Shown: one piece after another, positions 25,899 to 57,444 of the stretch
Layout of the letters: every line of letters begins with the position of its first letter
Position numbering within the stretch: position 1 is the first letter of the stretch
Origin: an uncultured Bacteroidota bacterium
GTDB lineage: Bacteria; Bacteroidota; Bacteroidia; Chitinophagales; Chitinophagaceae
Length of the DNA: 64,000 nucleotides
Assembly: GCA_963782125.1 (NCBI GenBank)
Contig: CAWAID010000008.1
Coordinates: forward strand, 114,795-178,794
Direction of reading: 5' to 3'
Program-made: the position numbers and the translations under genes
The notes under the pieces: model-generated
The model's input: the letters and a program-made list of their open reading frames with translations, nothing else
Told to the model about the DNA's origin: nothing
Databases searched by the model: none

Positions 25899-26036
25899 CT
25901 GACGAGAATGTTGAACTCTTTGCTATTATTGATTGGTGAGGATGCCTATCGCCAATTTTAGAAAATTTCAGGAAAATATCTTACCTCATTTCTATATTTT
26001 TCCGTTATTTGCCTTTTTATTGCAAAATCGCAAAAA

Positions 26037-27316: not shown

Positions 27317-27318
27317 AT

Positions 27319-35463: not shown

Positions 35464-35650
35464 GCTCTTGGATACTTATCTGTCTTCGAGATTAAGTCCT
35501 ATTAGTCTCAATAAGACAATGGCTTCCACAGATTAGAAACATACAATCTTGAAGGGACTATAGGGATTCGGACAGCTAACAGATAACAAAGGATGTATTC
35601 CTTTTGACACAGAAATAAAATCAATCGATCGCAGAGATTACATCGGCAGA

Positions 35651-37813: not shown

Positions 37814-38362
37814 ATGGCAATATTTACGAAGTCTCAATTTGAGTCAATAGCAAAGTCAAGAACTGGTTTAGCCGACTTCAAAGCGGTCAACATGTTTGAA
37901 AGCCGCAAGTTTTCCAAGTCTAGTTCAACAACAAGCATTTTCCTTTCCCACTCTCACGTCGATCAAGTAGTAGTAGCACAAGCAAAGGGCTTTTTTGAGA
38001 CCCTTGGGATTAGCATTTACATTGACTGGGCCGATGAAACTATGCCAGAAAAAACAAACGGGGTTACCGCGTCAAGAATAAAGTCAAAAATTCTTAGCAA
38101 TGATAAGTTTATCCTGTTAGCAACAAATGCAGCCGTGTCTTCTAAGTGGTGTAACTGGGAGGTCGGCATTGGAGACGTATATAAATTAAATTCTGACAAA
38201 ATCTGCATACTCCCGCTTGCGGATAACAATGCAACATGGCTCGGCAATGAGTACCTGCAAATCTATCCAAGAGTAGAGCCGGTTGAGAACTACAGCAACA
38301 TTTTTAGGGTAATTTACCCAGATGGAAAAGTCGACTGGCTTCACGAATGGCTAAAAAAGTAA
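37814..38362 (+). CDS. thsB: TIR-like (DUF1863) ThsB-like protein 2
   Basis: IFLSHSHVDQVVVAQ...SKWCNWEVGIG TIR-like signature. Confidence 0.65.
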   Translation: MAIFTKSQFESIAKSRTGLADFKAVNMFESRKFSKSSSTTSIFLSHSHVDQVVVAQAKGFFETLGISIYIDWADETMPEKTNGVTASRIKSKILSNDKFILLATNAAVSSKWCNWEVGIGDVYKLNSDKICILPLADNNATWLGNEYLQIYPRVEPVENYSNIFRVIYPDGKVDWLHEWLKK

Positions 38363-39612
38363 TCATGGAATTCACCAGTCAACAAAAGACCTTTATAAAT
38401 GTTTACGCGGCCGAAATCTTAAATGGCGATGCGGCAATTTTTGCCGGCGCTGGGCTGTCAGCTTCTTTAGGTTTCGTGAATTGGAAAGAACTATTAAAGG
38501 ATTTAGCCGATGAGCTCAATTTGAAAATTGAGAAGGAGCACGATTTGATCTCTGTGGCCCAATATCATTTCAACAAGTTCAAAAGAGGCAAAATAAACAC
38601 TAAGATCATCAATGAGTTTACCAGCCTTTCTGTGGGGAGCGAGAATCACAAAGTCCTTTCTCGAATTGGGATTGATACTTTTTGGACAACAAATTATGAC
38701 CAGCTCATTGAAAGAACTTTAGAAGCAGAAGGTAAAACCGCAGAAAAGAAGGTCCGGAACGAAGATTTTTCAAGAAACATCAAAAAGAAAGATGCAGTTG
38801 TCTACAAGATGCATGGGGACAAAGATTCACCGGATGAAGCAATCCTAACTAAGGATGACTACGAAACCTACAACGACAAAAAAGAATTATTTTCTACAGC
38901 ACTTAGGGGAGATTTGCTGTCAAAAACTTTTCTATTTATTGGGTTCAGCTTTGATGATCCGAACCTGGACTACATACTGGGTAGAATAAAGGTGCTATTG
39001 AAAGATAACACCCCAACACACTACTGTTTTTTCAGAGAAATTGCTGAGAAAGACTTCAGCGATCCTAAAAAGACAGCGGAAGAGAACAAAGAAGACTATC
39101 TCTATGCGAAAATTAAGCAGACGCTAAAAATAGATGATTTGGTCAGGTATGGAATTCATGCTATTATGGTGAAGGAGTATACTGAGATCACTGACATTCT
39201 TTTTGAAATAGAAAAGCGGGTGAAGAGAAAGAATATTTTCATTTCCGGTGCCGCCTGCACCTATGATCCATTTTCCGAAGAGCAAGCCAAAGACCTAATC
39301 CATTCATTGAGTTTTAAGCTAGCCGAAAAGGAGTATAAGATTGTATCAGGTTACGGCACTGGAATAGGCAGCATTGTTATTAACGGAGCCCTAGACTTTA
39401 AGTTGAACTCAAAATTTCGGAATCTAGATGATTTGCTAATCCTTAGACCGTTTCCCCAAATACAATCGGGAGGAGCAAGAATAAAAGATGTATGGACGCA
39501 ATATCGAATTGAAATGATTTCAAAAGCAGGAATTGCAATTTTTGTCTTTGGAAATAAGAGACTAGAAGACGGAACGGTTGGCAATTCAGATGGTATGTTG
39601 GAGGAATTCTAG
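38347..39612 (+). CDS. thsA: Thoeris ThsA (SIR2 domain plus SLOG domain), ending at an in-frame TAG
   Basis: SIR2 motifs IFAGAGLSASLGFVNW, TTNYDQL and YKMHGD; SLOG ISGAACTYDP...VSGYGTGIG. Confidence 0.75.
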   Translation: MAKKVIMEFTSQQKTFINVYAAEILNGDAAIFAGAGLSASLGFVNWKELLKDLADELNLKIEKEHDLISVAQYHFNKFKRGKINTKIINEFTSLSVGSENHKVLSRIGIDTFWTTNYDQLIERTLEAEGKTAEKKVRNEDFSRNIKKKDAVVYKMHGDKDSPDEAILTKDDYETYNDKKELFSTALRGDLLSKTFLFIGFSFDDPNLDYILGRIKVLLKDNTPTHYCFFREIAEKDFSDPKKTAEENKEDYLYAKIKQTLKIDDLVRYGIHAIMVKEYTEITDILFEIEKRVKRKNIFISGAACTYDPFSEEQAKDLIHSLSFKLAEKEYKIVSGYGTGIGSIVINGALDFKLNSKFRNLDDLLILRPFPQIQSGGARIKDVWTQYRIEMISKAGIAIFVFGNKRLEDGTVGNSDGMLEEF

Positions 39613-40645: not shown

Positions 40646-41137
40646 ATGGCAAGACGAGTATTTTTTAGCTTCCACTATGAAAATGACGTGTGGAGGGTGA
40701 ATGTTGTAAGAAATAGTTGGGTTACTCAACATGGAAATGAAGCAGCAGGCTTCATTGATGCTGCTGCATTTGAGGAAGTAAAGAAGAAGGGCGACACCAA
40801 CATTAAGAATTGGATTGATAGTCAGCTTTCAGGGACGTCCGTCACTGTCGTTCTTATAGGATCACAGACAAATCAACGAGACTACGTAAAATACGAACTC
40901 TCAAAAAGCTATCAAAAGGGAAATGGAATTTTAGGCATCTACATTCATGGCATAAAGGATATAAACGGTAACATCTCTGTAAAGGGTTCAAACCACTTTG
41001 GTGAAATAGGGAAAGACGAGAAAGGGAATTCTGTCTACTTGAGCTCAAATTATCATTGCTATGATTGGATTGCGGACGATGGTTATAATAACTTGGGAGG
41101 TTGGATTGAGCAAGCGGCAAAAAGCGCTTCAAAATGA
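40646..41137 (+). CDS. thsB: TIR-like (DUF1863) ThsB-like protein 3
   Basis: VFFSFHYENDVWRVNVVRN hallmark of DUF1863/ThsB. Confidence 0.7.
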   Translation: MARRVFFSFHYENDVWRVNVVRNSWVTQHGNEAAGFIDAAAFEEVKKKGDTNIKNWIDSQLSGTSVTVVLIGSQTNQRDYVKYELSKSYQKGNGILGIYIHGIKDINGNISVKGSNHFGEIGKDEKGNSVYLSSNYHCYDWIADDGYNNLGGWIEQAAKSASK

Positions 41138-42141
41138 ACAGCACGACAATTGCGGAATTACAAATAGAGTATAATAAAAAACTCCCTCTCTTCCATCGAG
41201 CATTAAAAAATACGGTCGATGCCCTTGAACTGTTCATGGAAGAGCATAACATTTTGCATTTGGTGATAACTGGAAGAATCAAATCGTTTGAATCATTCGC
41301 ACAAAAGGTTGACAGAAAAAATTATAAAGACCCTTTTGTTGAAAATGAGGATTTCTGTGGAATCAGAATTATTGTCTTTTACCCGAGCGACATAAATGCT
41401 GTTCAGGAAATTATTGACACTGAATTTCAGATTGTTGAATCATTTGACAAAGTTGACTCACTAGAGGCGAATGAGTTTGGCTATCGATCGAAACACTCAA
41501 TAGTTATGATTAAGGATGAGTGGCTGAGCAGCCCTAATTATCGGAGTTTACAAGGAGTAAAAATCGAAATTCAGGTAAGGACAATTCTGATGCATGCTTG
41601 GGCTGAAATAGAACATAAGCTTGCCTACAAAAATGCGAACCAAATTCGTAAGGATGTCAAAAGACAACTTGCTAGAATCAGTGCTCAACTCGAAACAACG
41701 GATGAACAGTTTCAGAATCTTAAAGACAGTATTCAGAGCTACCAAGACGACATTAAACTAAGCGTACAAATTAGTAAAGCAGTACCTGCCACCGCAGATT
41801 TAGACTATGACAGCGTAAACGCTCTTCTCGAATACTACTTGCCGGACCTTCCTAATAATCGTGGGAATTTAATAAGAGTAATGGAGAGGCTGGCTAATAA
41901 TCACTACAGCCTGTCCAAAGTGGAAGAATTACTTAAGAAAATAAGGCCCTACATACTTGCCATTAATGAAGCGGTCTTTCCACGGAAGGAGTTATCCTTG
42001 ACTCGCGCCACTATCCTCGGCTACGCGATGGACATTTTTGAGGGCTATGATTCAAGTCCAACTGTGGCTTATTCCGAAACTCGGCGAACTGTTGTCGAAG
42101 CATTCAGGAAAATAGTTTCGGAAGTAAATGACGGAAGCTAA
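41134..42141 (+). CDS. RelA/SpoT-domain nucleotide pyrophosphokinase (toxSAS/CapRel-like) with ~150-aa C-terminal extension
   Basis: GRIKSFESF, CGIRIIVFYPSD, YRSKHSIV and EIQVRTILMHAWAEIEHKLAYK RSH synthetase motifs. ATGA overlap with thsB3. Confidence 0.75.
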   Translation: MNSTTIAELQIEYNKKLPLFHRALKNTVDALELFMEEHNILHLVITGRIKSFESFAQKVDRKNYKDPFVENEDFCGIRIIVFYPSDINAVQEIIDTEFQIVESFDKVDSLEANEFGYRSKHSIVMIKDEWLSSPNYRSLQGVKIEIQVRTILMHAWAEIEHKLAYKNANQIRKDVKRQLARISAQLETTDEQFQNLKDSIQSYQDDIKLSVQISKAVPATADLDYDSVNALLEYYLPDLPNNRGNLIRVMERLANNHYSLSKVEELLKKIRPYILAINEAVFPRKELSLTRATILGYAMDIFEGYDSSPTVAYSETRRTVVEAFRKIVSEVNDGS

Positions 42142-42230: not shown

Positions 42231-42551
42231 TCAGAAAGGCTTCACGGGTACCGCACCTATCGTATCGCATCGAGCCGTAGCCAAAAGCAAACCGAAACTA
42301 TCGGCTTCATCAATTTTAAGGTGGAGACTTTGCAATTTTCTGTTTGCCCCCTCACTAAGCATGTTATCGAAAAATGGGAACAAATAAGGACTGCGATATT
42401 CCTGCTGCGTCTTAGGAAGCGTAAGACTGACGGCCGGGAACCTTTTATCCCGGTAGAAACTATCATCATATCGAAATACATAACTATTGCGAGACTCCTC
42501 TGTTAGGATTCCAGCTACGACCCTATTTCTAAATACGATTGCTTTTCTCAT
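42231..42551 (-). pseudogene. Orphan HipA N-terminal domain fragment (no kinase core downstream)
   Basis: VFRYDDSFY...FPFFDNMLSEGANRKLQ...DTIGAV matches the HipA N-subdomain. The next gene is the plus-strand RSH gene. Confidence 0.6.
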
Positions 42552-45075: not shown

Positions 45076-45381
45076 ATGTGTCTTGCGCTGCTTATTTTGT
45101 GCCGAAATCACTATCCAGCAGGGCTATTAAGAATGGAGGGGGAGGCACACCAAAATATCGCAACCGTTAAGCTAGGGATTGTTGTAAATGTTCGCATGGA
45201 TGTTGTACGCCCATTTGGATTTATAAGAACATTTCGCTCGCCTGAAGATTTTACTAGTAAAACTTCATTTGGTAATGGAGATACCTACTTCGGCACTGAA
45301 TGGCAACAAAACTGTGATTTGTCCGTCGGTGACGTCGTTGTATTTGATGTTCAGACTAAAAATAGACGCCCGTACTGGTGA
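45076..45381 (+). CDS. Cold-shock-domain-like OB-fold protein (may be the frameshifted N-terminus of the following exonuclease protein)
   Basis: GIVVNVRMDVVRPFGFIR...LSVGDVVVFDV resembles CspA-like GxVKWFN..GFGFI...G..V.F.V. Confidence 0.4.
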   Translation: MCLALLILCRNHYPAGLLRMEGEAHQNIATVKLGIVVNVRMDVVRPFGFIRTFRSPEDFTSKTSFGNGDTYFGTEWQQNCDLSVGDVVVFDVQTKNRRPYW

Positions 45382-47569
45382 AGCTAAACAGTCTGCTCGA
45401 TTTGTCTCTATTCGTGTACCAATATTCATACTTACAGAAAAAGAGGGCAGCCATGATGTCTTCATCCTTCACAAAGCTGCATTCGGTTATAAAATTAATG
45501 GCCCCAAAAACGAGCCCGTACAAACTGGCTTTTTTATAGCACGTGTGTTTCGGAAGGGTACCGAATATGGAACAACGTTGGAGGTTGAACATTTGGGGCC
45601 GTTGCCCGACGGCGCTGTTGTAAGACGATGGGCGGCCGCACTAGTTGAGCAGATAGCTAAGCACCGGTCTTTTGCTCAAACGCTGTCTATATTTTGTGAG
45701 TTAGTCAGGGACCGGTACCCAACCATAAGTAGCCTTTCTGTTGTTTACCACTTCTTGGGCCGCTGGCTTGAATCTGAGAATTGTTTTTTGCACTTCCTGA
45801 ATGGTGTAGCCAACTTGAAAGTCCAGTCAATTGCCATGCGGACTGTTCTTCAGGCTGCCGAGGTACTACAGAGCATTCCCCTTAAGTATGCCCTCTGGTT
45901 GAACGGAGTCTTAAAAGCGCCACCAGAACTGATTACGCCGCATCACATTACTGGGTGGAAATGCGTGCTTACGACATCCGATTGGCAAACCTTATGGAGT
46001 TTTTTCAAAAAGTTGGCATCTGACTTTCCGAGGCGGCCTGAAACGCAGCATACACTACGATACATTTTAGAGCAGAGGATTCACATTAATACAGATGAAG
46101 ACTGCAATGAAATCATTAGGGTACTGAAAAGAACAAGGCTTTTATATCCGCACATTCAGGTTCAAGAAGCCCACATAGCGGCGAATAAGACGCAATTCAT
46201 AATCCGCCTTTGGCAAGAAGGCTTGCTATCCGATTTATCAGAAACTGTATTCAAAGCTCACCTTAAAGAAAGCAACGCTACGGAGCTTGCGACCGAACTT
46301 TCGGTATTAAGCTCCGCACAGCAGATTCAGTTGCTGTCGCATTCCGAGAATTACGCGAAGGAATTTCAATCCGCATCAGATAGTGCTTTCTACGACATTC
46401 TACCTCCTATTCTCTTTGTTGATATTGAAAGTGACGGAGACAAGGTTCGTGAACTGGCTTGGCATTACAAGGGTGAAACAACAGAATACACTAAGATTGA
46501 AGAGGGTATCTCTGCTCTGAATGCCATTATCGCCCGTGACAACCCAATCGTCGCAGGCCACAATATCATTCGGTTTGACCTTCCTATTCTTGAAAGTAAA
46601 GGTCTCGCAACTGAAAAGCTTGTGTTGCTGGATACGCTGCTGTTGGAAACAGTTTTGCAACCAACTCGCACCAGCCATGCGCTGCGCACCGGACACCGGG
46701 CGGCTGCTGACGTGAAGGTTACTGCTGCGCTTTTCAATTCGCAAATAGCACGCCTCTGTCTTGCCGATAATGAGCTTGTAACGGAGCTCATCAAGCTATT
46801 GCCTGCATCCATCGGCATAGGTGTTGCTGAACTCCGAAAGCAATCAATTCAGTCTTTTCTTGCCGCGCGCGACGATCTCTTCTCGGGAGATAATTTTTTC
46901 CATCGCGCATCCGAAAAAAATGCAGTGCCCGCCGAAATAGCATTTGCCATCAAAGCCAGCCGGCAGCGTTCGCAGATGGTAATTGTGCCCGAGATTTTCT
47001 GGTCGCAGCTGCTCCATTCCGGCATTTGTCTGTTTGCAAATGAAGGCCATTCATATGGTTACGTCATTTCTGCCAGAAAAGTTACCGAGCTGCAAAGTGA
47101 AATGCCGTGGCTTGCGCTTGCAGCAAAACATTACATCGGTCAATGTGCCGCAGAAGAGCGCATTCCACACCTGGCAATGCTTTCACCGTATCTACGGTTT
47201 GCACTTGAAGGGTTGGAGGCGCGCATTTGCTTCACGCTTTCAGAAGCACTCAGGCAATTTTCGGATGCCGCCATCTGTACCTCCCCTGATTTTTATTCAG
47301 CGACTCCTCTGCAACCGCTGCCCTACGCTGTGAATGCTGCGCTCATAGTAGCCCCGTTTCTTTCCCGCCAATCCGCCCACAGATTGTTGGCCGAGGTAAC
47401 GATGTCTGACCTCCTTACCATCCTGCCGGGCAGCAAGGTCTGGATGCAATTTTCAGGAGGAACCAGCCTTGTTCCGCTGGATAATGAAGACGCGTTGAGG
47501 CTAAGTGGCAAGAACCTTGCACAAGTCGGAGACTGCTGGCTGCAGCGAATAGGTCGCAATGAGATTTAA
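45269..47569 (+). CDS. Large protein with central DEDD (DnaQ-like) 3'-5' exonuclease domain; start uncertain
   Basis: Exo I ILFVDIESDGD, Exo II VAGHNIIRFDLPIL, Exo III HRAAADV. Confidence 0.6.
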   Translation: MVMEIPTSALNGNKTVICPSVTSLYLMFRLKIDARTGEAKQSARFVSIRVPIFILTEKEGSHDVFILHKAAFGYKINGPKNEPVQTGFFIARVFRKGTEYGTTLEVEHLGPLPDGAVVRRWAAALVEQIAKHRSFAQTLSIFCELVRDRYPTISSLSVVYHFLGRWLESENCFLHFLNGVANLKVQSIAMRTVLQAAEVLQSIPLKYALWLNGVLKAPPELITPHHITGWKCVLTTSDWQTLWSFFKKLASDFPRRPETQHTLRYILEQRIHINTDEDCNEIIRVLKRTRLLYPHIQVQEAHIAANKTQFIIRLWQEGLLSDLSETVFKAHLKESNATELATELSVLSSAQQIQLLSHSENYAKEFQSASDSAFYDILPPILFVDIESDGDKVRELAWHYKGETTEYTKIEEGISALNAIIARDNPIVAGHNIIRFDLPILESKGLATEKLVLLDTLLLETVLQPTRTSHALRTGHRAAADVKVTAALFNSQIARLCLADNELVTELIKLLPASIGIGVAELRKQSIQSFLAARDDLFSGDNFFHRASEKNAVPAEIAFAIKASRQRSQMVIVPEIFWSQLLHSGICLFANEGHSYGYVISARKVTELQSEMPWLALAAKHYIGQCAAEERIPHLAMLSPYLRFALEGLEARICFTLSEALRQFSDAAICTSPDFYSATPLQPLPYAVNAALIVAPFLSRQSAHRLLAEVTMSDLLTILPGSKVWMQFSGGTSLVPLDNEDALRLSGKNLAQVGDCWLQRIGRNEI

Positions 47570-48497
47570 GGCGTGGCAAAGCAGTAACCTGGATACCACA
47601 CTCTCGGTGGCCGGTATCAACAGCGTAGTAGAAATAGACTGGCTTAAGCCAGCGCCATCAATTCGTCTCCGGGCACTATTGGGTCGTGATACGCCCGGCG
47701 ATACGCAGCGAAGCGTTAACCCAGAATCATTCTATCGCAGCCTTTACTGGACGTACGCAGCTAAGCTCATCAGCCGCCTTAAAGAATTATTGCCAATTGT
47801 GCTGTTGATAGAAGCAGAGGAAGAGCTGGACAAAGTGGCGGGCCTCTTTAGAAGTCGCGGCTATTATGTGCCGGAGCGCAAAGCCGGGCTGCGCAGAAAG
47901 CTGGAATTGCTTGCCAGCGCAGGTAAGAAACAAGCGCTACTGCCATTGTCTTCGTCACAGCTAGCCGAAGTACTTCAATGCCACTTGGATACGCCTTTTC
48001 AATTTGTCAGAGAATCTCTCAGGCTTAGCGAGTCGGCGCTGCTCACGCCGCGTAAGAACGGAGAAGGGTATCGTGAAACGTCTGAACATTCCGGTGAAGA
48101 CGCGCCAGCGCATCAGGATGAAGACGAAAAGAATGACGAAACCGAAATGCCAAAGCGTTCTTTAAAGGCGCAAAATGCCTTCGCGGGCTTACAGCGAGAG
48201 CTCTTACTTGTACAGCATCAGGCATCCGCCATTATAGCTTTGAACCAAGCCAACATCTATACGCTGCTTGACCCCCGCGTTGGCGACTATCCAGGGTTGA
48301 ATGAGGAATATGGCATCGGTATTCAACGATGCGCAACATGGGAGCGAGAAGAAGATTACAAGCGCGATTTGGAGAAAGCACAGGTTTTCTTTGGAAGCGT
48401 TGGCGTTCCGGACGAAGCCACAAAGCTTAGCCCTGAAGAAGCTATTGAACGTCTGAGGCCTATCTTCCTAGAAGCGAAAGATTCTTTGGCGAGATGA
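47559..48497 (+). CDS. Hypothetical protein with acidic linker, translationally coupled to the exonuclease gene
   Basis: ATG overlaps the upstream stop; no known domain. Confidence 0.35.
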   Translation: MRFKAWQSSNLDTTLSVAGINSVVEIDWLKPAPSIRLRALLGRDTPGDTQRSVNPESFYRSLYWTYAAKLISRLKELLPIVLLIEAEEELDKVAGLFRSRGYYVPERKAGLRRKLELLASAGKKQALLPLSSSQLAEVLQCHLDTPFQFVRESLRLSESALLTPRKNGEGYRETSEHSGEDAPAHQDEDEKNDETEMPKRSLKAQNAFAGLQRELLLVQHQASAIIALNQANIYTLLDPRVGDYPGLNEEYGIGIQRCATWEREEDYKRDLEKAQVFFGSVGVPDEATKLSPEEAIERLRPIFLEAKDSLAR

Positions 48498-48540
48498 GCA
48501 GCTAAGATACTTTGACATCATCCTTCCACAGGAGCAACAT

Positions 48541-49725
48541 GTGCTGGTATCGCTGCCTACGGGTGGCGGAAAGAGCGTGCTGTTTCAGGGGCCGGCGCTC
48601 CTGCAAGGCGCACTAACCAGCCGGCTTTCCATTGTAATCGTGCCGCTGAAGTCGCTTATGGAAGACCAGGTGGACAGTCTGGCAAAGCGTGGGTTTTACA
48701 CAAGCGTTGATTACTTGAGCGGCGACCGGCAGCAATACGAAAATCGGGAGGTGTTGCGCCGCCTGGCAGGTGGAGAGATTACGTTGCTGTACATTACGCC
48801 GGAACGATTTCGCTCCCGGGCGTTTGTGACGGCGCTGCAAACGCGCATGATGGTGGATTCGCGCCTGGCCTACTTTGTATTTGATGAGGCACATTGCATT
48901 TCGCAATGGGGTCAGGAGTTCCGTCCCGACTTCTTTCATGCATACACCATTGTAAAGGAATATCTCCGTGCTGTGCCGGATAGCCTCACGTTGCTATTAT
49001 TTTCTGCCACTGTTTCAGAACAGGTTTTTTTAGACATCAGCCGCAACATGCCGCGCATTGAGCGCTTAGACCTTTTCCCTAGTGGATACAACCCAGTGCG
49101 CGACCATATCAGGATGAGCTTCTTCAAAGACTTTATGGAAGAGGACAGGTTATCGCCCATCATAGAGCGACTAAATGCCGATGGCTTTAATCCCGCCTCT
49201 AGCCGCGCTATCATCTTTACTACTAGCAGAAGCCAAGCAGAAGAAGGCGCGGCCGCGCTTTCTGACAAGCTTACTGAACTGGATTGTGCATCAGGCGATG
49301 CCAATGCATTTAGTGTTGCACATTATCACGCTGGCCTTAGTGGGGAGCAACGTGAAGAAGTTTATGCTTCTTATAAAAAAGATGATGGCGCGCTGCCAAT
49401 CATTTTTGCTACCAAGGCTTTTGGAATGGGCGTCGATATCGGCAATATCCACCATGTATTTCACTTTTCACCACCATCGGCTTTTGAAGACTTCCTACAG
49501 GAAGTAGGTCGTGCCGGGCGCAATAAAGAAATGCTTGAAGATGCAGGTTTTGGGAAGGAGTCTCGGCCTATCGATGCGGTAACGCTACTAAGCCGGGGAG
49601 ACTTTAGCGCAATTAAGCTGCGCATGAAAAAAACAAAGCTTGCATGGTCGGATATAGGTATGGCACAGACGGCAATTCATGCTCATCTTCAGCAGCTTTG
49701 GCGCCTTAAAGTCAGATGCCGATAA
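48541..49725 (+). CDS. RecQ-like SF2 DNA helicase core (no Q-motif/N-terminus in frame; C-terminal region possibly in the +1 frame at 49679-49966)
   Basis: Motifs LPTGGGKS, FDEAHCISQWGQEFRPDF, FSAT, IIFTTSR, ATKAFGMGVD and QEVGRAGR. Confidence 0.75.
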   Translation: MLVSLPTGGGKSVLFQGPALLQGALTSRLSIVIVPLKSLMEDQVDSLAKRGFYTSVDYLSGDRQQYENREVLRRLAGGEITLLYITPERFRSRAFVTALQTRMMVDSRLAYFVFDEAHCISQWGQEFRPDFFHAYTIVKEYLRAVPDSLTLLLFSATVSEQVFLDISRNMPRIERLDLFPSGYNPVRDHIRMSFFKDFMEEDRLSPIIERLNADGFNPASSRAIIFTTSRSQAEEGAAALSDKLTELDCASGDANAFSVAHYHAGLSGEQREEVYASYKKDDGALPIIFATKAFGMGVDIGNIHHVFHFSPPSAFEDFLQEVGRAGRNKEMLEDAGFGKESRPIDAVTLLSRGDFSAIKLRMKKTKLAWSDIGMAQTAIHAHLQQLWRLKVRCR

Positions 49726-50018
49726 ATCATGGCCAGTGCCGCTTAATCTGCTCTCCGACGGGCGTGCCTTTTTTAATAAAGAAGATATCGTTGCCAACAA
49801 ATTCCGGCTTTCGCTTTATTGGCTGGAGCAGCTTGGGCGGATACTGTTAGGCTTTTATACACCGACGCATTACAAAGTGCTTCGTGCTTCACTGAAAGGC
49901 GCGCAATGCGCGAGCGAAGCATTAACGCCATGTCTGGAGCAAATAATCATTCAGGCGTCAGCTTAAGCCTGGAGAAGGGGATTCGGCGCTGATATCCATT
50001 AGTGGGCTCGCAGGCACT

Positions 50019-50834
50019 TTGCATTGCAGTACAATGGAAGTAGTTAATAAGATGGCAGCGCTGCATGGAGAACGTTGCATTGAAATTGCTCACTACATCT
50101 ATCTCGTGCCATCTGTCAGTGTAGATGAAGAGTTTACAGCTTTTAAAAGGGTGGGCGATAACCGCCTTCTGGTGCGTTTACATTGGGCGGTCCTACTAGC
50201 AACGGCAATCCTGAAACGTTGTCCGCATCTTGATGAGTATCGAATGGGAAGCGCAGAACTGGATAAACTGGCAGAGGCCTGTTTGCATGAGGCAGTACTA
50301 TACCTGCCAGAGCGCATTAGAATATCAGCTATTGCTCAGGAGCAGTTTGGCACTGACCTCAAGCGCCGGAGAAAACATGTGTTTACCCTGCTGCGCAAAC
50401 TAATGGGCATACGGGTGAAGAGTGAGATCGCGGGTATCACACCGGGCGTTGGCAACAAGCAGCACGCTGAAGTTGTCCAGCTGATTTATAATGGTGGAAA
50501 ATCACCAACGGCCTGGGTGGAAGAGCTTCAGAAATTCAGCAATGCGGCTGCCAAACTGTGTGGTTGGGCCTACGACAACTCGCGGCAGGATGTGACAGGC
50601 AAAACGTCGCCATTTGAGTATGTCCAGAAATACCTGCCCGCTGAAGGAATTGCCTATCTGGAAGACCTGCTACACATCACAGGTCTGTTTGGGTACATAA
50701 AAACGGCCGGCAGCATCATGCCTACCGGCATTGGCGTTACACTGCTGTCTGATGAAGCGATTAAGGAGCGGGACAGCCAGCACATTGACAGCAATGTGTT
50801 TGCATCGTATGAGGAGTGGGGCTGGAAGGGATGA
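50019..50834 (+). CDS. Hypothetical protein ending at the IS21 boundary; possibly the N-terminal part of the IS-disrupted UvrD-like helicase gene (same frame)
   Basis: Stop TGA at 50832-34 abuts the IS terminal repeat; same reading frame as the helicase ORF beyond the IS. Confidence 0.4.
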   Translation: MHCSTMEVVNKMAALHGERCIEIAHYIYLVPSVSVDEEFTAFKRVGDNRLLVRLHWAVLLATAILKRCPHLDEYRMGSAELDKLAEACLHEAVLYLPERIRISAIAQEQFGTDLKRRRKHVFTLLRKLMGIRVKSEIAGITPGVGNKQHAEVVQLIYNGGKSPTAWVEELQKFSNAAAKLCGWAYDNSRQDVTGKTSPFEYVQKYLPAEGIAYLEDLLHITGLFGYIKTAGSIMPTGIGVTLLSDEAIKERDSQHIDSNVFASYEEWGWKG

Positions 50835-51101
50835 TGAAGTTGACCCACTAAGGATGAAGCAAACTGACCCACCTTCTGACTGGCGAAGATTTGGCGTTTT
50901 TGCTGGCGAAGAGGTGAGTGGATTTGATGTTTTGTTGAGTGTTTAAAAATGTGATTTCTGCATTTTTCTTCTGGATCGGTTCGTGACTAAAGGTCTATAG
51001 AAATTTGATTTGTTGATCCGGGGAGCATGCGGATAGCTTTGTCCACAAAAATTTTTAGGCTGGCCCCGCAGCCTTAGTGAAGGGCCAGCCGTATAGAAAA
51101 T

Positions 51102-51863
51102 TTATGTGGATAAAGCGGGCAGGGTGCCGTCGTTCTGTACGCTCTCGGACATTTCTGGCTTTTTGCGACGCATCGATTCTCCGTGCAGATCCAAACGATG
51201 CGCGTTGTGAACGATTCTGTCCAGGATTGCGTCGGCGATCGTTTGCTCACCAATCAACTCATACCATTTGGCTACCGGTACCTGTGAGGTAATGATTAGC
51301 GAGGCCTTTCCATGCCGGTCTTCAATAAGCTCCATCAGGATAGCACGGCTTTGCGCATCGAAGGGCTGGATGCCAAAGTCATCGAGGATTAGTAGATGCT
51401 GCCGTTCAATGCGGGTCACTTCTTTGAGATAGGAGCCATCGGCCTTTGCCATTTTCAGACGGGCGAAAAGCTTGGGTACATTAAAGTAGGCTACCCGATA
51501 ACCGCGGCTGCAGGCATGATGGCCAAGAGCAGATGCGATGTAGCTTTTGCCAATCCCGGTGCTGCCGGTGATCAGGATGTTTTCATTCCGGTCAATAAAG
51601 CTGCAGTCGGCAAAGCGCAGGATCTGGTTCTTGTCCGCATTGCGGTCTGTATGGTAGTACAGGTCCTCCAGCGCTGCTTTGTAGCGGAAGCGGGCGTTGC
51701 GGATCTTGAGGTCAATGCCCCGGTTCTGCCGCTCATCCCATTCTGCATCTACCAGATGTGCGACGATCTGGTCCGCCGTGAAGGTTTCTGCTTTGCCTGC
51801 TTCAAGGCTGGTTTTGAAGGCACGGAACATGCCGTGGAACTTCATCTTTTCTGAGCTTGTCAA
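51102..51863 (-). CDS. istB: IS21-family helper ATPase IstB
   Basis: Walker A ITGSTGIGKSYIASALGHHACSRG; Walker B LLILDDFG. Confidence 0.9.
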   Translation of the reverse strand: MTSSEKMKFHGMFRAFKTSLEAGKAETFTADQIVAHLVDAEWDERQNRGIDLKIRNARFRYKAALEDLYYHTDRNADKNQILRFADCSFIDRNENILITGSTGIGKSYIASALGHHACSRGYRVAYFNVPKLFARLKMAKADGSYLKEVTRIERQHLLILDDFGIQPFDAQSRAILMELIEDRHGKASLIITSQVPVAKWYELIGEQTIADAILDRIVHNAHRLDLHGESMRRKKPEMSESVQNDGTLPALST

Positions 51864-51899
51864 GTGTTTCTGTGTTCATGGTTACATTGATTTTATTGG

Positions 51900-53456
51900 T
51901 TAAGACTTGTTGTAATACTGTTCTCCTCTGATGTTGTCGTGTGCCGGCATCGTGAGCTGCTGCAGCTCATCTTCATCCTGCTGCGTATCCAGTCCTTTTT
52001 GCAGAATGCGCTCTATGATCTTGTAGTTATAGATGCCATAGCCTAAAGCCCGCTGGCAGGCTTTGATCAGCCGCTCATTGCCGACCTTTTTGGCGAAGCT
52101 TAAGATGCCCAGACAGGATTTATACGCCTGTTCCGGATGCTGTTTGCGATCCAGAACTTTCTGGATGTAGACCACTACGTCCGGGTCTATATCAGCAGCC
52201 CAGCTCAGGAAGCGCTGTGGCGTCCATTCTGTAACGAAGCGATGGGCGGAGGCCAGATGATCCGGGTCTGTAGTATAATGAAACGAACTCTTCACCCGGT
52301 TGTGGAGGGCAATGCGCTCGTAGCCGCTGTAGATCTCCACCGTCTTGTTGCTATAAAGAAGCTTTACTTTTTTGCCGATGTACTTGTACGGAACGCTGTA
52401 GAAGTGGCGATCGGCTCCAAGGGTCACATGCCCGTTCTTCATCACGGTGGCAAAGCTGGATTGCTTGATCTCGAAGCGTGTCGCGGGTAGCGGCATGAGT
52501 GTGCTGCGCTCCACTTCTTCAAATTGCTGGCGGCGGCTGTAGCTGCGGCCTTTTAAGTGGGCGTTGTTGTGCACCTCAAGCGCTTGCAGAATGGCTACAT
52601 TAAGTGCTTCCAGTGTTGTGAATCGCTGATCACGGAGCTTGCTGTAGATGCGCGCGTAAACGATTTTTACGGCATTCTCCACATGCGCCTTGTCTTTGGG
52701 GCGATAGGCTCTGGCCGGCAGGATGGTGGTGCCGTAATGCTCTGCAAACACAGCGTAGCTCTCATTCAAAACCGGCTCGTACTTACTGCTTTTGGTTACT
52801 GCGCTCTTCAGGTTGTCAGGAACAATAGCTGCCGGCACGCCGCCGATGAAGTGAAGGGCACCTTCGCAAGCGCCAATAAAATCTTCTTTCTGCTGACTCA
52901 TTACAGCCTCTACGTAGGTGAGCTGGCTGGCGCCCAGAATGCCTACGAACACTTCTACCGGCTTTAGCTCTCCGCTTTCCGGGTCGGTAATGTGGAGCTT
53001 GTCGCCGGCGAAGTCAACATATAGCTTGTCGCCGGCCTTGTGGTCTATGCGCATCGATGGATTGACGCTTGCTTTCCACTGCCTGTAGTAAGTGTTGAAC
53101 TGGCTTAGGCACAGGCCTTCCGGATTGTCCCGCCGATATTGTTCCCAGAGCACCTGACGGGTAGCGCCTTTGCGCTTCAGCGCTTTATCTATATCGGGAA
53201 ACAGGCTGTGCAACTGTGCTACCCGTTCGCTGGAGGGTGCAACTTGTGGCTTGATGAACAGGTCCTCCAGGTCTTTATCGCTGAGGGTATCAAGCTCTTT
53301 GAAGCTCAATCCGCTGTCAGTGAAAGCCTGGAAGTACCGCTTTAATGTATTGCGGGAGGTGCCGGTTTGTTCGGCGATGAGGCGCTTGCTTCGTCCCTGG
53401 TCGAGCAGGCGTAAGGCGTGTCTGATCCTGGTCATGCTTATCGGATTATTGGCCAT
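51900..53456 (-). CDS. istA: IS21-family transposase IstA
   Basis: N-terminal HTH followed by an rve-type DDE domain; 518 aa, immediately upstream of istB. Confidence 0.9.
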   Translation of the reverse strand: MANNPISMTRIRHALRLLDQGRSKRLIAEQTGTSRNTLKRYFQAFTDSGLSFKELDTLSDKDLEDLFIKPQVAPSSERVAQLHSLFPDIDKALKRKGATRQVLWEQYRRDNPEGLCLSQFNTYYRQWKASVNPSMRIDHKAGDKLYVDFAGDKLHITDPESGELKPVEVFVGILGASQLTYVEAVMSQQKEDFIGACEGALHFIGGVPAAIVPDNLKSAVTKSSKYEPVLNESYAVFAEHYGTTILPARAYRPKDKAHVENAVKIVYARIYSKLRDQRFTTLEALNVAILQALEVHNNAHLKGRSYSRRQQFEEVERSTLMPLPATRFEIKQSSFATVMKNGHVTLGADRHFYSVPYKYIGKKVKLLYSNKTVEIYSGYERIALHNRVKSSFHYTTDPDHLASAHRFVTEWTPQRFLSWAADIDPDVVVYIQKVLDRKQHPEQAYKSCLGILSFAKKVGNERLIKACQRALGYGIYNYKIIERILQKGLDTQQDEDELQQLTMPAHDNIRGEQYYNKS

Positions 53457-53675
53457 CAGGGCTAAGTTTTTAAGAAACTTAACCTAGACTGCCTCCGCCT
53501 AAAGCATCAGCTCAAATCTTACTTCCGGGTGGGTCAGTTTGCACCGGCGAGGGTGGGTCAGTTTGGACCGGCGCAGGTGGGTCAGTTTGAATCATCCTGG
53601 GTGGGTCAGCTTAAATCGGCGCGGGTGGGTCAGTTTGACCGTTCCCTCCAGTGGGGCAAGCTGCGTGAGCTAAAG

Positions 53676-55880
53676 ATGATTGCTTTGCAGGCAATGTCAG
53701 AAATGCCTCTCGGCGAGCAGGACGGTTTTATCAAAGCATACTTTAAGGCAAGCAACTTTGAGGAAATACTTGCGCTTCTTCACGAGACTTTTGGCGAAAT
53801 CCAGCGCATAAGATTTCCCAATCTACCTGAAGACAAAATTGAGCTCCATCCTGCCATGCAGGCGTTTGCCGAAGAAACCTTGAAGGCACAAGTCGCTGGT
53901 TTAAGCGAAGAGCAGAAAGCAGTTTATGATGCGCCGCTGGGCCAGCATATTTCTGTTATTGCCGGGCCAGGCTCTGGCAAGACGCATACACTTGCTTTAC
54001 GCGTAGCTCGCCTCATCCAGCAAGAAGACGTGTCCGCGGCAGATATTCTGGTCGTTGCCTACAATCGCGCAGTAGTAACTGAGCTAAAAGCGCGGCTGCA
54101 ACAAACCTTTCGTGCGTTAGGGTATCAGGATATTACAAAGCCGTTGCGCATCTGCACCTATGCGGAACTTGCGCTCAAGTTAAACCCAGATATAAGGAAG
54201 CAGCCCTTTAAGACAATTGAAGAACCGAATGTATGGGAGCGCGACCTCTGCAATAGACTGCAGGACAACCCCGCTCATGCGCTGATGCGGTTGGGCGCAG
54301 TGAAGTATTTATTGGTGGACGAGTTTCAGGACGCCACAGAGCTACGAATAGAAATTCTATCACGGCTTATAAAGCTGAGCGATGGCAAGCTGTTTGTAAT
54401 CGGCGACCCTAATCAAAGCATTTATGGCTTTGAACGAACTGCTGCTGGTTCGGCGATTGACCCATTGCCTTATTACGAATTGCTAGAAAAAGTATTTAGC
54501 CCATTAGCGCACTATGCGCTGACGCAAAACTTTCGATCTATGCCGGCAATTGTAGCAGCCAGCAATGAGCTTATATCACATTGGATACCACGCTACCAGG
54601 GATTGAAGCCGCTGGTCACAAAGCGGGAGCCGTTCCCAAATATGCCACGGGAATATTGTACGATAAGGCATCATGCAGAAGGCCTGCGTTGGTGGGATGA
54701 ACTTAAGAAATTGCTAGTTGAAACAGGTGACGAGTTGCAAAAAGGCGACAAACGTGAGCCTCAACGCTATCGGCAGATTGCTATTCTGTTCCGTAGCAAC
54801 AATGAGGTTTTCAGGGCAAAGGCAAGACTTTCTGAGGCTGGAATTGCAGGCATCCGGATACGCGTGCAGGGGAATCAGCCCACCGAGTTTATGCGCTTTC
54901 GCGAATGCCACTTCTTCCTACATAAGTATGCGCAAGAGGCGGCCCGTGAAACGCCTATACCAAACGATTTCCGTGACCAAATCAATAAGCTGATAACGGA
55001 ACAAAAGATAGCCTGCCCGGCATGGAACCAATTCTACTTATCAGTTGTTCATGCTCTCGTGCTGCAATATTTAGACGATGCGCCCGAGGATATACAGAAT
55101 ACTTACACGGCCCTATGCGACCACATCTGCGAAAGCACGCGGCGCGATGATGGGCAGCTTTGGAAGGTGTATGAAAAGTATAAGGACTTTGTTGACCCAG
55201 GCATGAATGAGACTGAAGTATTGCTAACAACAATGCACCGGGTTAAAGGTCTTGAGTTTGATGCCGTAATAGTGCCTCCGTCGTTCTCGGAGTTGCCGTT
55301 CATGCCCGGCACCGAAGATGAAGCAGTGATTCATGACCTTATAGACGAAGAGCGAAGGCTGATGTACGTTGCGTATTCGCGGGCAAAGTACCGGCTAGTA
55401 GTGATTCAGGGGGAACGCGAAGCCGCACTGCTAAGTCAGATACAGTACACGCCAGATGACAAGGTGGTAGGGCAAATTGGGCGGCCACTTAAGGATGGAT
55501 TAAAAGATGTAAATATTAGTTGGGGCGCAAAGGCTTTTTGCTTTTCCGGAAACGCTGCTCACGGTATTCTTTCCAACAACGAAATAGGACTAAGGGTGGG
55601 TGCGGGAGAACGGGTTACGCTAATTAGAAGGGTCAACAATTTTGGTACATTTTACGAGGTAAAAAATAGCTCTGCGCAACATATTGCGACGCTGTCACAA
55701 AACGCCGTTGCCGCCCTCACGGAACCAAAATATGATGGCATTTATGTAAACGAAGTAATTGTCTGGACAGAAGAATCAGCTGCAACCGCGGGATTTGCAG
55801 ACCAGTGGTGTGAAGAAGCCAGAACCCAGGGTTATATTTATGTTGTTGCCCTTGCAGGCTATAGCAAGCCTGTTGCCTGA
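53676..55880 (+). CDS. UvrD/Rep-like SF1 helicase
   Basis: Motifs AGPGSGKTHT, LLVDEFQDAT, VIGDPNQSIY, HRVKGLEFD and VAYSRAKYRL. The ORF upstream of MIALQ is just translation of the IS repeats. Confidence 0.8.
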   Translation: MIALQAMSEMPLGEQDGFIKAYFKASNFEEILALLHETFGEIQRIRFPNLPEDKIELHPAMQAFAEETLKAQVAGLSEEQKAVYDAPLGQHISVIAGPGSGKTHTLALRVARLIQQEDVSAADILVVAYNRAVVTELKARLQQTFRALGYQDITKPLRICTYAELALKLNPDIRKQPFKTIEEPNVWERDLCNRLQDNPAHALMRLGAVKYLLVDEFQDATELRIEILSRLIKLSDGKLFVIGDPNQSIYGFERTAAGSAIDPLPYYELLEKVFSPLAHYALTQNFRSMPAIVAASNELISHWIPRYQGLKPLVTKREPFPNMPREYCTIRHHAEGLRWWDELKKLLVETGDELQKGDKREPQRYRQIAILFRSNNEVFRAKARLSEAGIAGIRIRVQGNQPTEFMRFRECHFFLHKYAQEAARETPIPNDFRDQINKLITEQKIACPAWNQFYLSVVHALVLQYLDDAPEDIQNTYTALCDHICESTRRDDGQLWKVYEKYKDFVDPGMNETEVLLTTMHRVKGLEFDAVIVPPSFSELPFMPGTEDEAVIHDLIDEERRLMYVAYSRAKYRLVVIQGEREAALLSQIQYTPDDKVVGQIGRPLKDGLKDVNISWGAKAFCFSGNAAHGILSNNEIGLRVGAGERVTLIRRVNNFGTFYEVKNSSAQHIATLSQNAVAALTEPKYDGIYVNEVIVWTEESAATAGFADQWCEEARTQGYIYVVALAGYSKPVA

Positions 55881-55927: not shown

Positions 55928-56326
55928 ATGGCTGGCAAAAAAGAAAGCTACTGGATTCCGCTTGCCGACCTGATGACGGTCTTAATGGTGATATTCCTAT
56001 TTATGGCTATCTCCTACATGATTGTGATTAAAAACAAGCAAAAGGATAAAGACACAATCATTAAAGACTTTCAGGCTGCGAAGGTGGAACTATTGAAGGA
56101 GCTGCAGGTGCAGTTCAACGAAGACTTTAAGACAACAAAGTGGAATGCTGTGCTGGACTCCAATAATCTGTCAATCCGCTTTGTAGACGAGCGTATTCTT
56201 TTTGACTACAACAAGAGTGAGCTAAAAGAGGATTTCAAAAAAATTCTTGCGGATTTCCTTCCTCGATATTTACAAATAATCCTCAAAGAAAAGTACGCGG
56301 ATAAGATTGCTGAAGGTTCGAATTGA
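55928..56326 (+). CDS. MotB/ZorB-like protein, N-terminal TM part (frameshift at ~56310)
   Basis: WIPLADLMTVLMVIFLFMAIS MotB-type TM anchor. Confidence 0.55.
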   Translation: MAGKKESYWIPLADLMTVLMVIFLFMAISYMIVIKNKQKDKDTIIKDFQAAKVELLKELQVQFNEDFKTTKWNAVLDSNNLSIRFVDERILFDYNKSELKEDFKKILADFLPRYLQIILKEKYADKIAEGSN

Positions 56327-56636
56327 GGGTCATACTAGTTCTGAGGGTGATTACATCTATAATCTCCAGCTTTCACAAGACCGGACGCGGAATGTGATGC
56401 GCTTTCTACTTGCGCTTGACTATTTTCAAAAGCTAGGGCAAAAAGACAAAGACAGATTGCAATACTGGCTTACCGCAAATGGACTTTCTTTTGGCAGGCA
56501 ATTGGACAAAACAGGTCGCGAGATTTACAGAACAGGCGCCCCAGCCGACCCTACTACTTGCCGGCGGGTGGAATTCAGAATTGTAACCGCAAGTGACGAG
56601 CTGATTAAAAAAGCTGTTCAGAAACTTTCAAACTAA
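56307..56636 (+). CDS. MotB/ZorB-like protein, OmpA-like peptidoglycan-binding part
   Basis: VRIEGHTSSEGDYIYNLQLSQDRTRNVMRFL...RRVEFRIV OmpA/MotB motifs. Confidence 0.65.
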   Translation: MLKVRIEGHTSSEGDYIYNLQLSQDRTRNVMRFLLALDYFQKLGQKDKDRLQYWLTANGLSFGRQLDKTGREIYRTGAPADPTTCRRVEFRIVTASDELIKKAVQKLSN

Positions 56637-56646
56637 GATACGACCC

Positions 56647-57444
56647 ATGCAGACCGTGAAGTTCATTGTTGACTGGTTGCCCTATTTGTTTATGGCGGCC
56701 TATCTCACCTGGGCGTTTAGCTATGTACTAAGGGCAAAGCGAAATCCCGAACGAGTGAACAAGTATCTGCTGGACATGATACCCCAGATTTTTACCACAA
56801 TCGGTATTCTGGGCACGTTCCTCGGTATTGCCGTCGGTCTATACTTCTTTGATGTAAAGGACATGGAGGGAAGCATTCCAATTCTCCTGGGAGGGTTAAA
56901 GACTGCGTTTTTCGCATCCATTGCAGGCATCGTCTGCTACTTCTTTTTTTCAAAATGGATAGCGCGGGTACAGAAGCAAAACGAGCACGGTAAGCTTAGT
57001 GATGAAGCAACTATTCTCAACAAGTTGGTTGATTCAATGAATGATTTCAAAGGGGAAATGCTACGGGTAATGACATCAAAAGATGAAGCAAATAATCAGG
57101 CTACTATTGGCAATTTGCTCCGTGAAATATGCGATGAATCAAAGAAACAGTCTGCGGCCTTACAGACTTTTTCTACAGATTTAGCCGTCACTATCACGGC
57201 GGGCTTTGAAGAAATCTTCAACAATCCAAAAGAAGGTGTCGTTTATGAATTGCAGGGCCTGCGAACCGAAATTGAGTCTTTAGGTAACAAGCTCAATGAC
57301 CCGACAACAGAGATGACGCAAAACGTCGTGAAAGACTTAGAAGCGGCTTTGGAGCGAATGGTTGCTGAAGTTCAAAACCTCCGTCTCCGGTTCCGCAAAA
57401 GCCGAGATGGAGGGATTGGCGAAATTGCTCGGACAGGCTGGTGA
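56647..57444 (+). CDS. MotA/ExbB/ZorA-like proton-channel domain protein
   Basis: TM helices with GILGTFLGIAVGL and LKTAFFASIAGIVCYF typical of the MotA_ExbB family. Confidence 0.65.
   Translation: MQTVKFIVDWLPYLFMAAYLTWAFSYVLRAKRNPERVNKYLLDMIPQIFTTIGILGTFLGIAVGLYFFDVKDMEGSIPILLGGLKTAFFASIAGIVCYFFFSKWIARVQKQNEHGKLSDEATILNKLVDSMNDFKGEMLRVMTSKDEANNQATIGNLLREICDESKKQSAALQTFSTDLAVTITAGFEEIFNNPKEGVVYELQGLRTEIESLGNKLNDPTTEMTQNVVKDLEAALERMVAEVQNLRLRFRKSRDGGIGEIARTGW

Follow-up and report, generated by a model that had tools for sequence, protein, structure and literature searches.

One giant helicase gene with a predicted exonuclease domain lies in pieces in a defence island of an uncultured Chitinophagaceae bacterium

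Background

What is encoded by a run of overlapping and closely spaced open reading frames (ORFs) in a bacterial defence island: a set of small, coupled nuclease and helicase genes, or something larger? We asked this of a 64,000-nucleotide (nt) stretch of DNA, hereafter the window, from an uncultured Bacteroidota bacterium of the family Chitinophagaceae (GenBank assembly GCA_963782125.1, contig CAWAID010000008.1, positions 114,795 to 178,794 of the forward strand; all coordinates below are positions in the window). An earlier note on this DNA, made from the sequence alone, had read positions 45076-49966 as a module of four coupled genes for a cold-shock-like protein, a 766-amino-acid (aa) exonuclease protein, a 312-aa acidic protein and a RecQ-like helicase. 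Here, we report that these ORFs are real as ORFs and are pieces of a single 2,635-codon gene, which runs on to 55880 through a 271-aa ORF, an IS21-family insertion sequence (IS) and a UvrD-like helicase ORF, and which belongs to a rare family of giant multidomain proteins.

Results

One gene in pieces

The + strand between 45 and 56 kb presents itself as a series of ORFs in changing frames, with two ORFs on the opposite strand among them:

45076-45381, + strand: ORF of 101 aa
45269-47569, + strand: ORF of 766 aa
47559-48497, + strand: ORF of 312 aa
48541-49725, + strand: ORF of 394 aa
49679-49966, + strand: ORF of 95 aa
50019-50834, + strand: ORF of 271 aa
51102-51863 and 51900-53456, - strand: two ORFs
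53529-55880, + strand: ORF of 783 aa

The reference for reassembling them was L001, a metagenome contig that carries the closest relative of the window's locus. In frame-aware tblastn comparisons, all pieces of the window were colinear with the reading frames of L001, and deletion of five single bases together with excision of the IS21 element, leaving one copy of its target duplication, produced a stop-free ORF at 45133-55880 (7,908 nt, 2,635 aa). Because L001 is colinear, the repaired ORF is stop-free and more than 100 homologues, 2,400-2,700 aa long, each consist of a single chain, 45133-55880 is one 2,635-codon gene and not an operon, and the ORFs are its fragments. Its parts, and the breaks between them, are as follows:

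45133..45357, + strand: piece 1, with start codon ATG 45133 and the first cold-shock-like OB fold (tblastn high-scoring segment pair, in the same L001 frame as piece 2)
45358 (approximate), + strand: frameshift 1, one extra base in the run ACTAAAAAT (L001 DNA alignment; removal restores the frame)
45359..46390, + strand: second OB-like beta domain (about aa 85-160), then an all-helical domain (about aa 160-420), from an AlphaFold 2 (AF2) model
46391..46813, + strand: predicted DEDDh 3'-5' exonuclease domain (Exo motifs, profile, fold)
46814..47560, + strand: helical linker, then the first lobe of a DinG-like module (model against PDB 9ii8, family motif counts)
47561, + strand: frameshift 2, an extra base in CGCAATGAGATT (L001 reads through in one frame, GRSRFKVWQ; removal restores RNRFKAWQ)
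47562..48484, + strand: second RecA-like lobe (HD2) of the inactive DinG/XPD-like module and linker to the RecQ-like Q motif
48485, + strand: frameshift 3, an extra T in GATTCTTTGG, which splits the 312-aa ORF from the Q motif
48486..49692, + strand: RecQ-like SF2 helicase core (Pfam, PADLOC, motifs)
49693 (within about 15 nt), + strand: frameshift 4 (L001 comparison, frame restoration)
49694..49962, + strand: family-conserved region after the RecQ-like core (FRLSLYWLEQLGRILLGFY), the 95-aa "+1 frame" ORF
49963 (approximate), + strand: frameshift 5, an extra T in GCTTAAG (L001 comparison, frame restoration)
49964..50822, + strand: middle region between the two active-looking helicases (271-aa ORF), its 3' end cut by the IS
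50823..53650, - strand: IS21-family insertion sequence, 2,828 bp (terminal repeats, Pfam, target duplication)
51102-51863, - strand: istB (IstB_IS21, 1.7e-66)
51900-53456, - strand: istA (rve, HTH and Mu-transposase C-terminal domain in Pfam)
53658..55880, + strand: linker, UvrD-like SF1 helicase and a conserved C-terminal domain (about 135 aa, to the stop)

Nucleotide alignment showed one extra base relative to L001 at each of the five window sites, and the L001 frame is continuous across all five. The window shifts by +1 five times and L001 shifts twice, at positions that differ between the two. ATG 45133, the beginning of the C-terminal 82 codons of the 101-aa ORF, aligns with the called start of the L001 homologue, in which the cold-shock-like N-terminus and the exonuclease protein share a frame; the overlap of the first two ORFs at 45269-45381, correctly observed before, is a frameshift scar within one gene. 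The tail of the 766-aa ORF and the 312-aa part form one ORF in L001, and a single 1,544-codon ORF there covers the window's 394-, 95-, 271- and 783-aa pieces. The stop-over-ATG overlap at 47559-47569, which had suggested translational coupling, is created by the extra base of frameshift 2. Of two places that had been flagged for indels, 45380 lies close to an extra base at about 45358, and 48470-48540 includes one at about 48485. Removing the latter lets the C-terminus of the 312-aa ORF run on into the Q motif WRDEQ (about 48487-48501), which lies in the helicase ORF's own frame upstream of its GTG, so the helicase is not the Q-motif-less protein it had appeared to be.

Could the ORFs nevertheless encode separate subunits of a multi-gene operon, in which a small cold-shock protein and the 766-aa exonuclease would work together with a translationally coupled acidic protein of 312 aa and with the RecQ-like helicase? 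The ORFs exist, the ATG at the 766/312 junction does overlap a stop, and a natural two-gene form of the family (below) shows that splitting is tolerated in principle. However, in that natural form the RecQ-like core is cut between its RecA1 and RecA2 lobes, a point at which the window is intact, and the window's own breaks fall elsewhere and inside conserved domains: between the OB folds, in the DinG-like module, between the Q motif and its upstream linker, and in the conserved regions after the core. L001 is in frame at all five sites, and the helicase ORF has a Q motif only when the frame is corrected. We therefore regard an operon as highly improbable. Programmed frameshifting was also considered and rejected; the five sites lack a common motif and the closest relative does not have them. 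For the annotation of this genome, the correction is that five "genes" are one pseudogene.

Domains of the predicted protein

Pfam gave no match to the cold-shock domain PF00313 in the window copy, while many homologues match PF00313 at the equivalent N-terminal position, and a family-derived cold-shock hidden Markov model (HMM) scored 10.4 bits on the window copy against a maximum of 5.9 in 200 shuffles; a cold-shock-like fold here, as first proposed, is thus plausible but weak. The AF2 model of the 766-aa ORF (predicted local distance difference test score, pLDDT, 83.9) placed strands at residues 27-111 and helices at residues 115-377. No Pfam match was obtained for the OB and helical region at 45359..46390, and relatives of the all-helical domain outside the family were not detectable.

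The exonuclease motifs noticed from the start in the 766-aa protein were confirmed. In the numbering of the reconstructed protein they are Exo I FVDIES (D430, E432), Exo II GHNIIRFD (N477, D482) and Exo III HRAAAD (H521, D526), and these residues are kept in 105-107 of the 107 family sequences. The domain matched the PADLOC DEDDh model (E 2.7e-5), its family profile matched the PolC, TREX-like and RNase T exonucleases in the PDB (E 0.008), and its predicted fold is the RNase H-like fold of DnaQ; single-sequence PDB searches with the exonuclease and OB regions gave no match. The DEDDh site is intact, and 3'-5' exonuclease activity is predicted from it.

The alignment of the model with Staphylococcus aureus ExoDinG (9ii8) spans 248 residues and so reaches beyond the exonuclease domain. 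The order found, a DEDDh domain followed by DinG/XPD-type MD1 and MD2, is that of ExoDinG, and the SF2 ATPase motifs of MD1 (Walker A, DEAH) are absent. At the P-loop position, the window reads VPEIFW and the family consensus is IIAPExLW. None of the 107 family sequences has a DEAH motif in this module, Walker A is missing as well, and the sole G(x)GK[ST] matches in the region, across the 107 sequences, belong to an unrelated WLQxSGGxS motif. A family profile of the DinG-like lobe found no match in the PDB. What had been taken for a separate acidic protein of 312 aa turns out to be HD2, the second RecA-like lobe of this ATPase-motif-less module, with a disordered acidic insert (aa 165-201 of the 312-aa ORF).

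The two remaining helicases have complete motifs and look active. After frame correction, the RecQ-like core carries the Q motif WRDEQ, Walker A PTGGGKS, DEAH FDEAHC and motif VI QEVGRAGRN, with Pfam matches to DEAD (7e-23) and Helicase_C (1.3e-21). The UvrD-like part carries GPGSGKTH, VDEFQD and YSRAKYRL, with matches to UvrD-helicase (1.4e-30; 107.4 bits, cut-off 23) and UvrD_C (1.2e-18; 68.1 bits, cut-off 25.6). Among the ORFs of the locus, Pfam recognizes only three entities, namely DEAD/Helicase_C in the 394-aa ORF, UvrD-helicase plus UvrD_C in the 783-aa ORF, and the IS21 pair. Helicases of the RecQ and UvrD families are expected to move 3'-5'.

The earlier judgement that this is not a housekeeping recQ, rnt or dnaQ gene was borne out. 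The core shares motifs Q, I, II (DEAH) and VI with housekeeping RecQ, but it scored 206.5 bits against the TIGR01389 recQ cut-off of 640.2 (aligned over positions 32-320 of 591 only) and 174.2 bits against the PRK11057 RecQ cut-off of 1015, and neither the Zn-binding, winged-helix (RQC) and HRDC domains nor a conserved core-genome position was detected. The UvrD-like part likewise stayed far below the uvrD/pcrA/rep equivalogs (about 95-108 bits against cut-offs of 911-1144), and no ordinary recQ or rnt/dnaQ orthology with core synteny was found.

The 95-aa ORF after the core had been proposed as an RQC-like continuation in the +1 frame. Its family profile had no PDB match and no RQC similarity, none of the more than 100 homologues has a RecQ_Zn_bind, RQC or HRDC match in Pfam, and its +1 frame is a frameshift scar. 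For the C-terminal domain, the family profile found no meaningful match in the PDB.

State of this copy

The element at 50823..53650 has the marks of the IS21 family: istA, istB, multiple terminal repeats and a short target duplication. The duplication is perfect (7 bp, GTGGGGC, at 50816-50822 and 53651-53657), and the repeat GGTGGGTCAGTTTG is present in four to five copies, 24 nt apart, at one end of the IS (53528-53647) and in two copies at the other (50837-50874). Excision with one duplication copy yields the junction SYEEWGKLRELKM, the same as in L001. Since the 783-aa ORF starts within the IS repeats (MGQFAPARVGQF...), its first ~40 residues are IS-derived and lie outside the helicase. 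The IS21 insertion by itself inactivates the gene; this copy is a pseudogene, and the system is not working in this genome.

The frame-corrected pieces have identities to L001 of 84% for the RecQ-like core, 81% for 49694-49962, 76% for the 271-aa region and 70% for 53658-55880. Relative to L001, dN/dS was 0.06-0.26 for every piece (0.12 for 49694-49962 and likewise for 49964-50822), with dS above 1 and saturated. Given these low ratios in every piece, purifying selection acted on the gene during most of its past, and it was damaged recently.

Are the five frameshifts part of that damage? We consider them probably real decay. The alternative is that the gene is intact but for the IS21 element, and that the five frameshifts, along with shifts in neighbouring ZorA/ZorB-like and AAA_21 genes, are indel errors of the assembly. 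Several observations weigh against decay and fit such errors: eight frameshifts were seen in the island, of which seven insert one base (+1), including all five discussed here and two in the adjacent Zorya-like genes; the 7.9-kb reconstructed ORF holds no nonsense substitution; dN/dS is low; and L001, a contig labelled 2x coverage, is frameshifted as well. Some or all of the five could therefore be sequencing errors, in which case the IS would be the sole inactivator. Set against this, the shifts are confined to three genes or gene pairs, whereas reading frames are undamaged over ~24 kb of the island's other coding sequence (including the IS21 genes and the ZorC/D-like, SIR2-STALD, HMUDK, HipA and RelA/SpoT-like genes) and in the housekeeping ORFs that we checked. 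Only one of the five sites lies in a clear homopolymer, and multiple lesions in an already dead gene are the pattern expected of real decay. We hold assembly error as the explanation of all these shifts to be less likely, but well short of negligible.

A rare family with a one-gene and a two-gene form

In a first homology search, the 766-aa ORF matched itself and one relative (on L001), and no relatives of the 766-aa protein on genome contigs were confirmed. The family surfaced once the reconstructed helicase half served as query, which retrieved more than 100 proteins of 2,400-2,700 aa with 32-39% identity at about 100% query coverage, and these homologues also align across the N-terminal half. 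Their order is the same throughout: cold-shock-like OB folds, helical domain, RecQ-like SF2 core, linker region, UvrD-like SF1 helicase and C-terminal domain. Precomputed Pfam matches list CSD, DEAD, Helicase_C, UvrD-helicase and UvrD_C, and database names are limited to "RecQ family helicase" or "UvrD-helicase domain-containing protein". Where a source is named, it mostly belongs to the Bacteroidota (Chitinophagales, Saprospiraceae, Taibaiella, Niabella); one is Agitococcus. An alignment of 106 full-length members with the reconstruction gave the following median identities to the window:

N-terminal OB, helical and DinG-like HD1 parts (aa 1-420 and 560-810): 15-18%
Exonuclease domain: 34%
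DinG-like HD2 module (aa 810-1100): 24%
RecQ-like core: 49%
Middle linker region (aa 1480-1990): 25%
UvrD-like part: 40%
C-terminal domain: 30%

The family is rare: a profile of the 312-aa module found 132 clusters (50% identity) at E <= 1e-3 among 1.84 billion representatives. These 132 proteins fall into two length classes, of which the short one (about 1,270-1,500 aa) represents a genuine two-gene form. Gene 1 stops just after helicase motif III (LLFSATVS...), gene 2 opens with the second RecA lobe (YNPV.DHI...), and the two genes overlap by a few bases; the break point is identical in many clusters and divides the RecQ-like core between its RecA1 and RecA2 lobes. Examples are found on contig L010 (3787-11867) and on L013 (10498-18655), the complete plasmid pHsw1 of Hymenobacter swuensis DY53, where the pair is WP_044000431.1 and WP_044000430.1. 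Since the window is intact at this natural split point, it is of the single-chain type and its breaks are lesions. The two-gene form would lend itself directly to studies of the assembly of a split SF2 helicase. A second natural split, at the 312/394 junction, had been considered from two homologues of about 1,550-1,620 aa and was rejected, one being cut by a contig end and the other by an in-frame TGA.

Other copies are broken as well. On contig L009, an in-frame TGA (2865-2867) replaces a conserved Leu, and a plasmid copy of Hymenobacter cellulosilyticus (L014, 10537-18164) is annotated as at least seven ORF fragments. Either this is a costly gene that is often inactivated, or these are assembly errors.

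Two family copies lie on Hymenobacter plasmids, one of them near conjugation genes, and 50,697 phage records contained no family match. PADLOC v2 has no model for the giant family and returned generic helicase matches only. A description of this architecture was not found in full-text literature, the coverage of which is incomplete. The family appears to be undescribed and would be an addition to the helicase-nuclease defence proteins.

Genomic neighbourhood

From about 25 kb onwards, the window is a defence island, with RloB, HipA, WYL-WCX, MazG_C with a 5-hmdU DNA kinase, Thoeris-like TIR and SIR2-STALD, RelA/SpoT-like and Zorya-like genes. In the window and at six other loci, the neighbours are defence or mobile genes without conserved core synteny. 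Intact homologues are flanked by methyltransferases, DndD-like ATPase, HerA-like, UvrD-like, reverse transcriptase, WYL, SRA-HNH, GmrSD, HipA, Fic, AbiEi, HEPN_AbiV and Schlafen-like genes. Neighbours vary by locus, and no partner gene recurred across the examined loci. This association supports the view that the intact family is a stand-alone conflict-system protein, which retains the earlier idea of an uncharacterized defence system for the family, though not for the inactivated copy in this genome.

Comparison with known systems

In behaviour, the nearest characterized proteins are ExoDinG and Hna. ExoDinG is the DinG of S. aureus and B. subtilis with an N-terminal DEDDh exonuclease (PDB 9ii8; review PMC11981726), and both it and Hna are DinG-like 3'-5' single-stranded DNA (ssDNA) exonucleases (PMC11981726, PMC13381803). 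Compared with ExoDinG, the DinG-like lobes of the giant family lack Walker A and DEAH and have no sequence-level similarity, and the giant protein adds upstream OB folds, a 250-aa helical domain and two more active-looking helicases. Hna is an ATP-restrained 3'-5' ssDNA exonuclease that triggers abortive infection (PMC13381803). At the level of fold class, Hna and the giant protein share a single chain with a DinG-like scaffold, 3'-5' ssDNA exonuclease activity and regulation by ATP (the last two predicted for the giant protein), and both reside in defence islands; Hna, however, has 845 aa and a PD-(D/E)xK nuclease in place of DEDDh, and lacks RecQ-like and UvrD-like motors and OB folds.

The individual motors have relatives in other defence systems. 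For the SF2 core, the best PADLOC models were DpdF (7.7e-59) and PsyrT (9.8e-50), with matches limited to the helicase core; the NCBIfam DpdF model gave 151.9 bits against a cut-off of 550, and neither dpd genes nor a PsyrA partner lie nearby. The SF1 part matched the Gabija helicase GajB (PADLOC, 1.4e-40), but in the giant protein this helicase is the C-terminal third of 2,635 aa, and no GajA (OLD/TOPRIM) gene adjoins it in the window or in related loci. RecBCD and AddAB resemble the giant protein by analogy only, as multi-motor helicase-nuclease machines that destroy linear foreign DNA; they rely on a pair of SF1 motors with opposing polarities and on PD-(D/E)xK nucleases, distributed over separate subunits, whereas here SF2 and SF1 motors, both predicted to run 3'-5', would share one chain with a DEDDh exonuclease.

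The Werner syndrome protein WRN carries a DnaQ-fold 3'-5' exonuclease N-terminal to a RecQ-family helicase core in one chain. The WRN-like logic first suspected at this locus, a helicase plus a 3'-5' exonuclease, is supported, the DEDD exonuclease and the RecQ-like helicase being parts of one reconstructed polypeptide in the same order. The giant family differs from WRN in having no detected RQC or HRDC domain, an inactive DinG-like module between exonuclease and helicase, an additional UvrD-like SF1 helicase and a place in a bacterial defence island.

Interpretation

On balance, we lean towards reading the locus as what is left of one gene whose 2,635-aa multidomain product belongs to a rare, undescribed family, the intact form of which would be a stand-alone anti-phage or anti-plasmid effector. 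From its N-terminus, the predicted protein opens with two cold-shock-like OB folds and a helical domain, followed by a DEDDh 3'-5' exonuclease and a dead DinG/XPD-like two-lobe module; an active-looking RecQ-like SF2 helicase is then joined through a linker region to an active-looking UvrD-like SF1 helicase, and the C-terminal domain comes last. The OB folds and the dead DinG-like groove might hold single-stranded nucleic acid while the two 3'-5' motors, driven by ATP, unwind or strip the target, and the 3' end could then be fed into the DEDDh site and degraded. The intact protein would, in effect, be an ExoDinG- or Hna-type exonuclease to which RecQ and UvrD motors have been added. More specifically, and only tentatively, we propose an undescribed stand-alone effector, made as one chain or with a split RecQ-like core, in which the exonuclease is joined to a dead DinG clamp or sensor and to motors of two superfamilies and is targeted by the cold-shock domains to the single strands of invaders. 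If the family is indeed an immune effector, it presents a new architecture beside the helicase-nuclease defences Hna, Nhi, Gabija and RecBCD, with three helicase-type modules (one dead) and a DEDDh exonuclease in a chain of ~2,650 aa.

Several points tell against this proposal. The defence role rests on neighbourhood only. Two motors predicted to run 3'-5' would have to cooperate with a 3'-5' exonuclease on one substrate, and RNA would suit cold-shock domains no less than ssDNA. The exonuclease domain reaches no Pfam threshold (RNase_T, with no match even at E <= 5), and the broken copies on L001, on L009 and on the H. cellulosilyticus plasmid could reflect poor assemblies and not biology.

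A different function is also conceivable, namely that of a DNA repair or replication-restart factor (a "repairosome" of RecQ, UvrD and an ExoI-like nuclease) or of a maintenance protein of plasmids or integrative and conjugative elements. Every catalytic module has housekeeping repair paralogues, two copies lie on Hymenobacter plasmids, one of them beside conjugation genes, and the window copy is preceded by an excisionase-like HTH_17 gene. However, the distribution is patchy and rare, neighbours are variable and mostly known defence genes, copies have repeatedly been inactivated, as is common for costly defence genes, and the phage records lack the family. We judge a repair or maintenance role to be improbable and retain the stand-alone effector as the favoured reading.

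Other observations in the island

Some neighbours of the giant gene show frame breaks of their own. In the Zorya-like cluster that follows it (55928-58204), the MotB_plug and OmpA parts of the ZorB-like gene at the start of the cluster lie in different frames (+1 shift), as do the MotA_ExbB and coiled-coil parts of the ZorA-like gene (two frames, +1 shift); the ZorC-like (EH_Signature, 58221-59660) and ZorD-like (SNF2, 59657-62491) genes are apparently intact. An AAA_21 ATPase gene at 25962-27313 is a further broken defence gene: its frame is split, profile positions 3-83 falling in the first of two ORFs and 237-303 in the second, and it lies directly upstream of an intact RloB-like gene (the pair spans 25962-28059).

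At 34873-36679, MazG_C (1.4e-65) adjoins a 5-hmdU DNA kinase helical domain (3.7e-109); such genes are typical of phage thymidine hypermodification and are here found in a bacterial defence island beside TIR genes. The Thoeris-like set consists of ThsB_TIR (36633-37133), TIR_2 (37814-38362), a ThsA-like SIR2 plus STALD gene (38347-39612) and a second ThsB_TIR (40646-41137), the last of which overlaps by 4 nt a RelA/SpoT-like gene (41134-42141; PADLOC PDC-S33, 1.2e-16). A full HipA kinase gene lies at 28579-29835, and a fragment with the HipA N-terminal domain only, probably a remnant, at 42231-42551 on the - strand.

Finally, two unrelated loci have a GmrSD-type gene (type IV restriction) close to the giant gene: on L005 (18026-20179) it follows directly downstream, and on L001 (11147-12499) it is found two genes downstream. 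The proximity may reflect a loose association, or no more than chance within defence islands.

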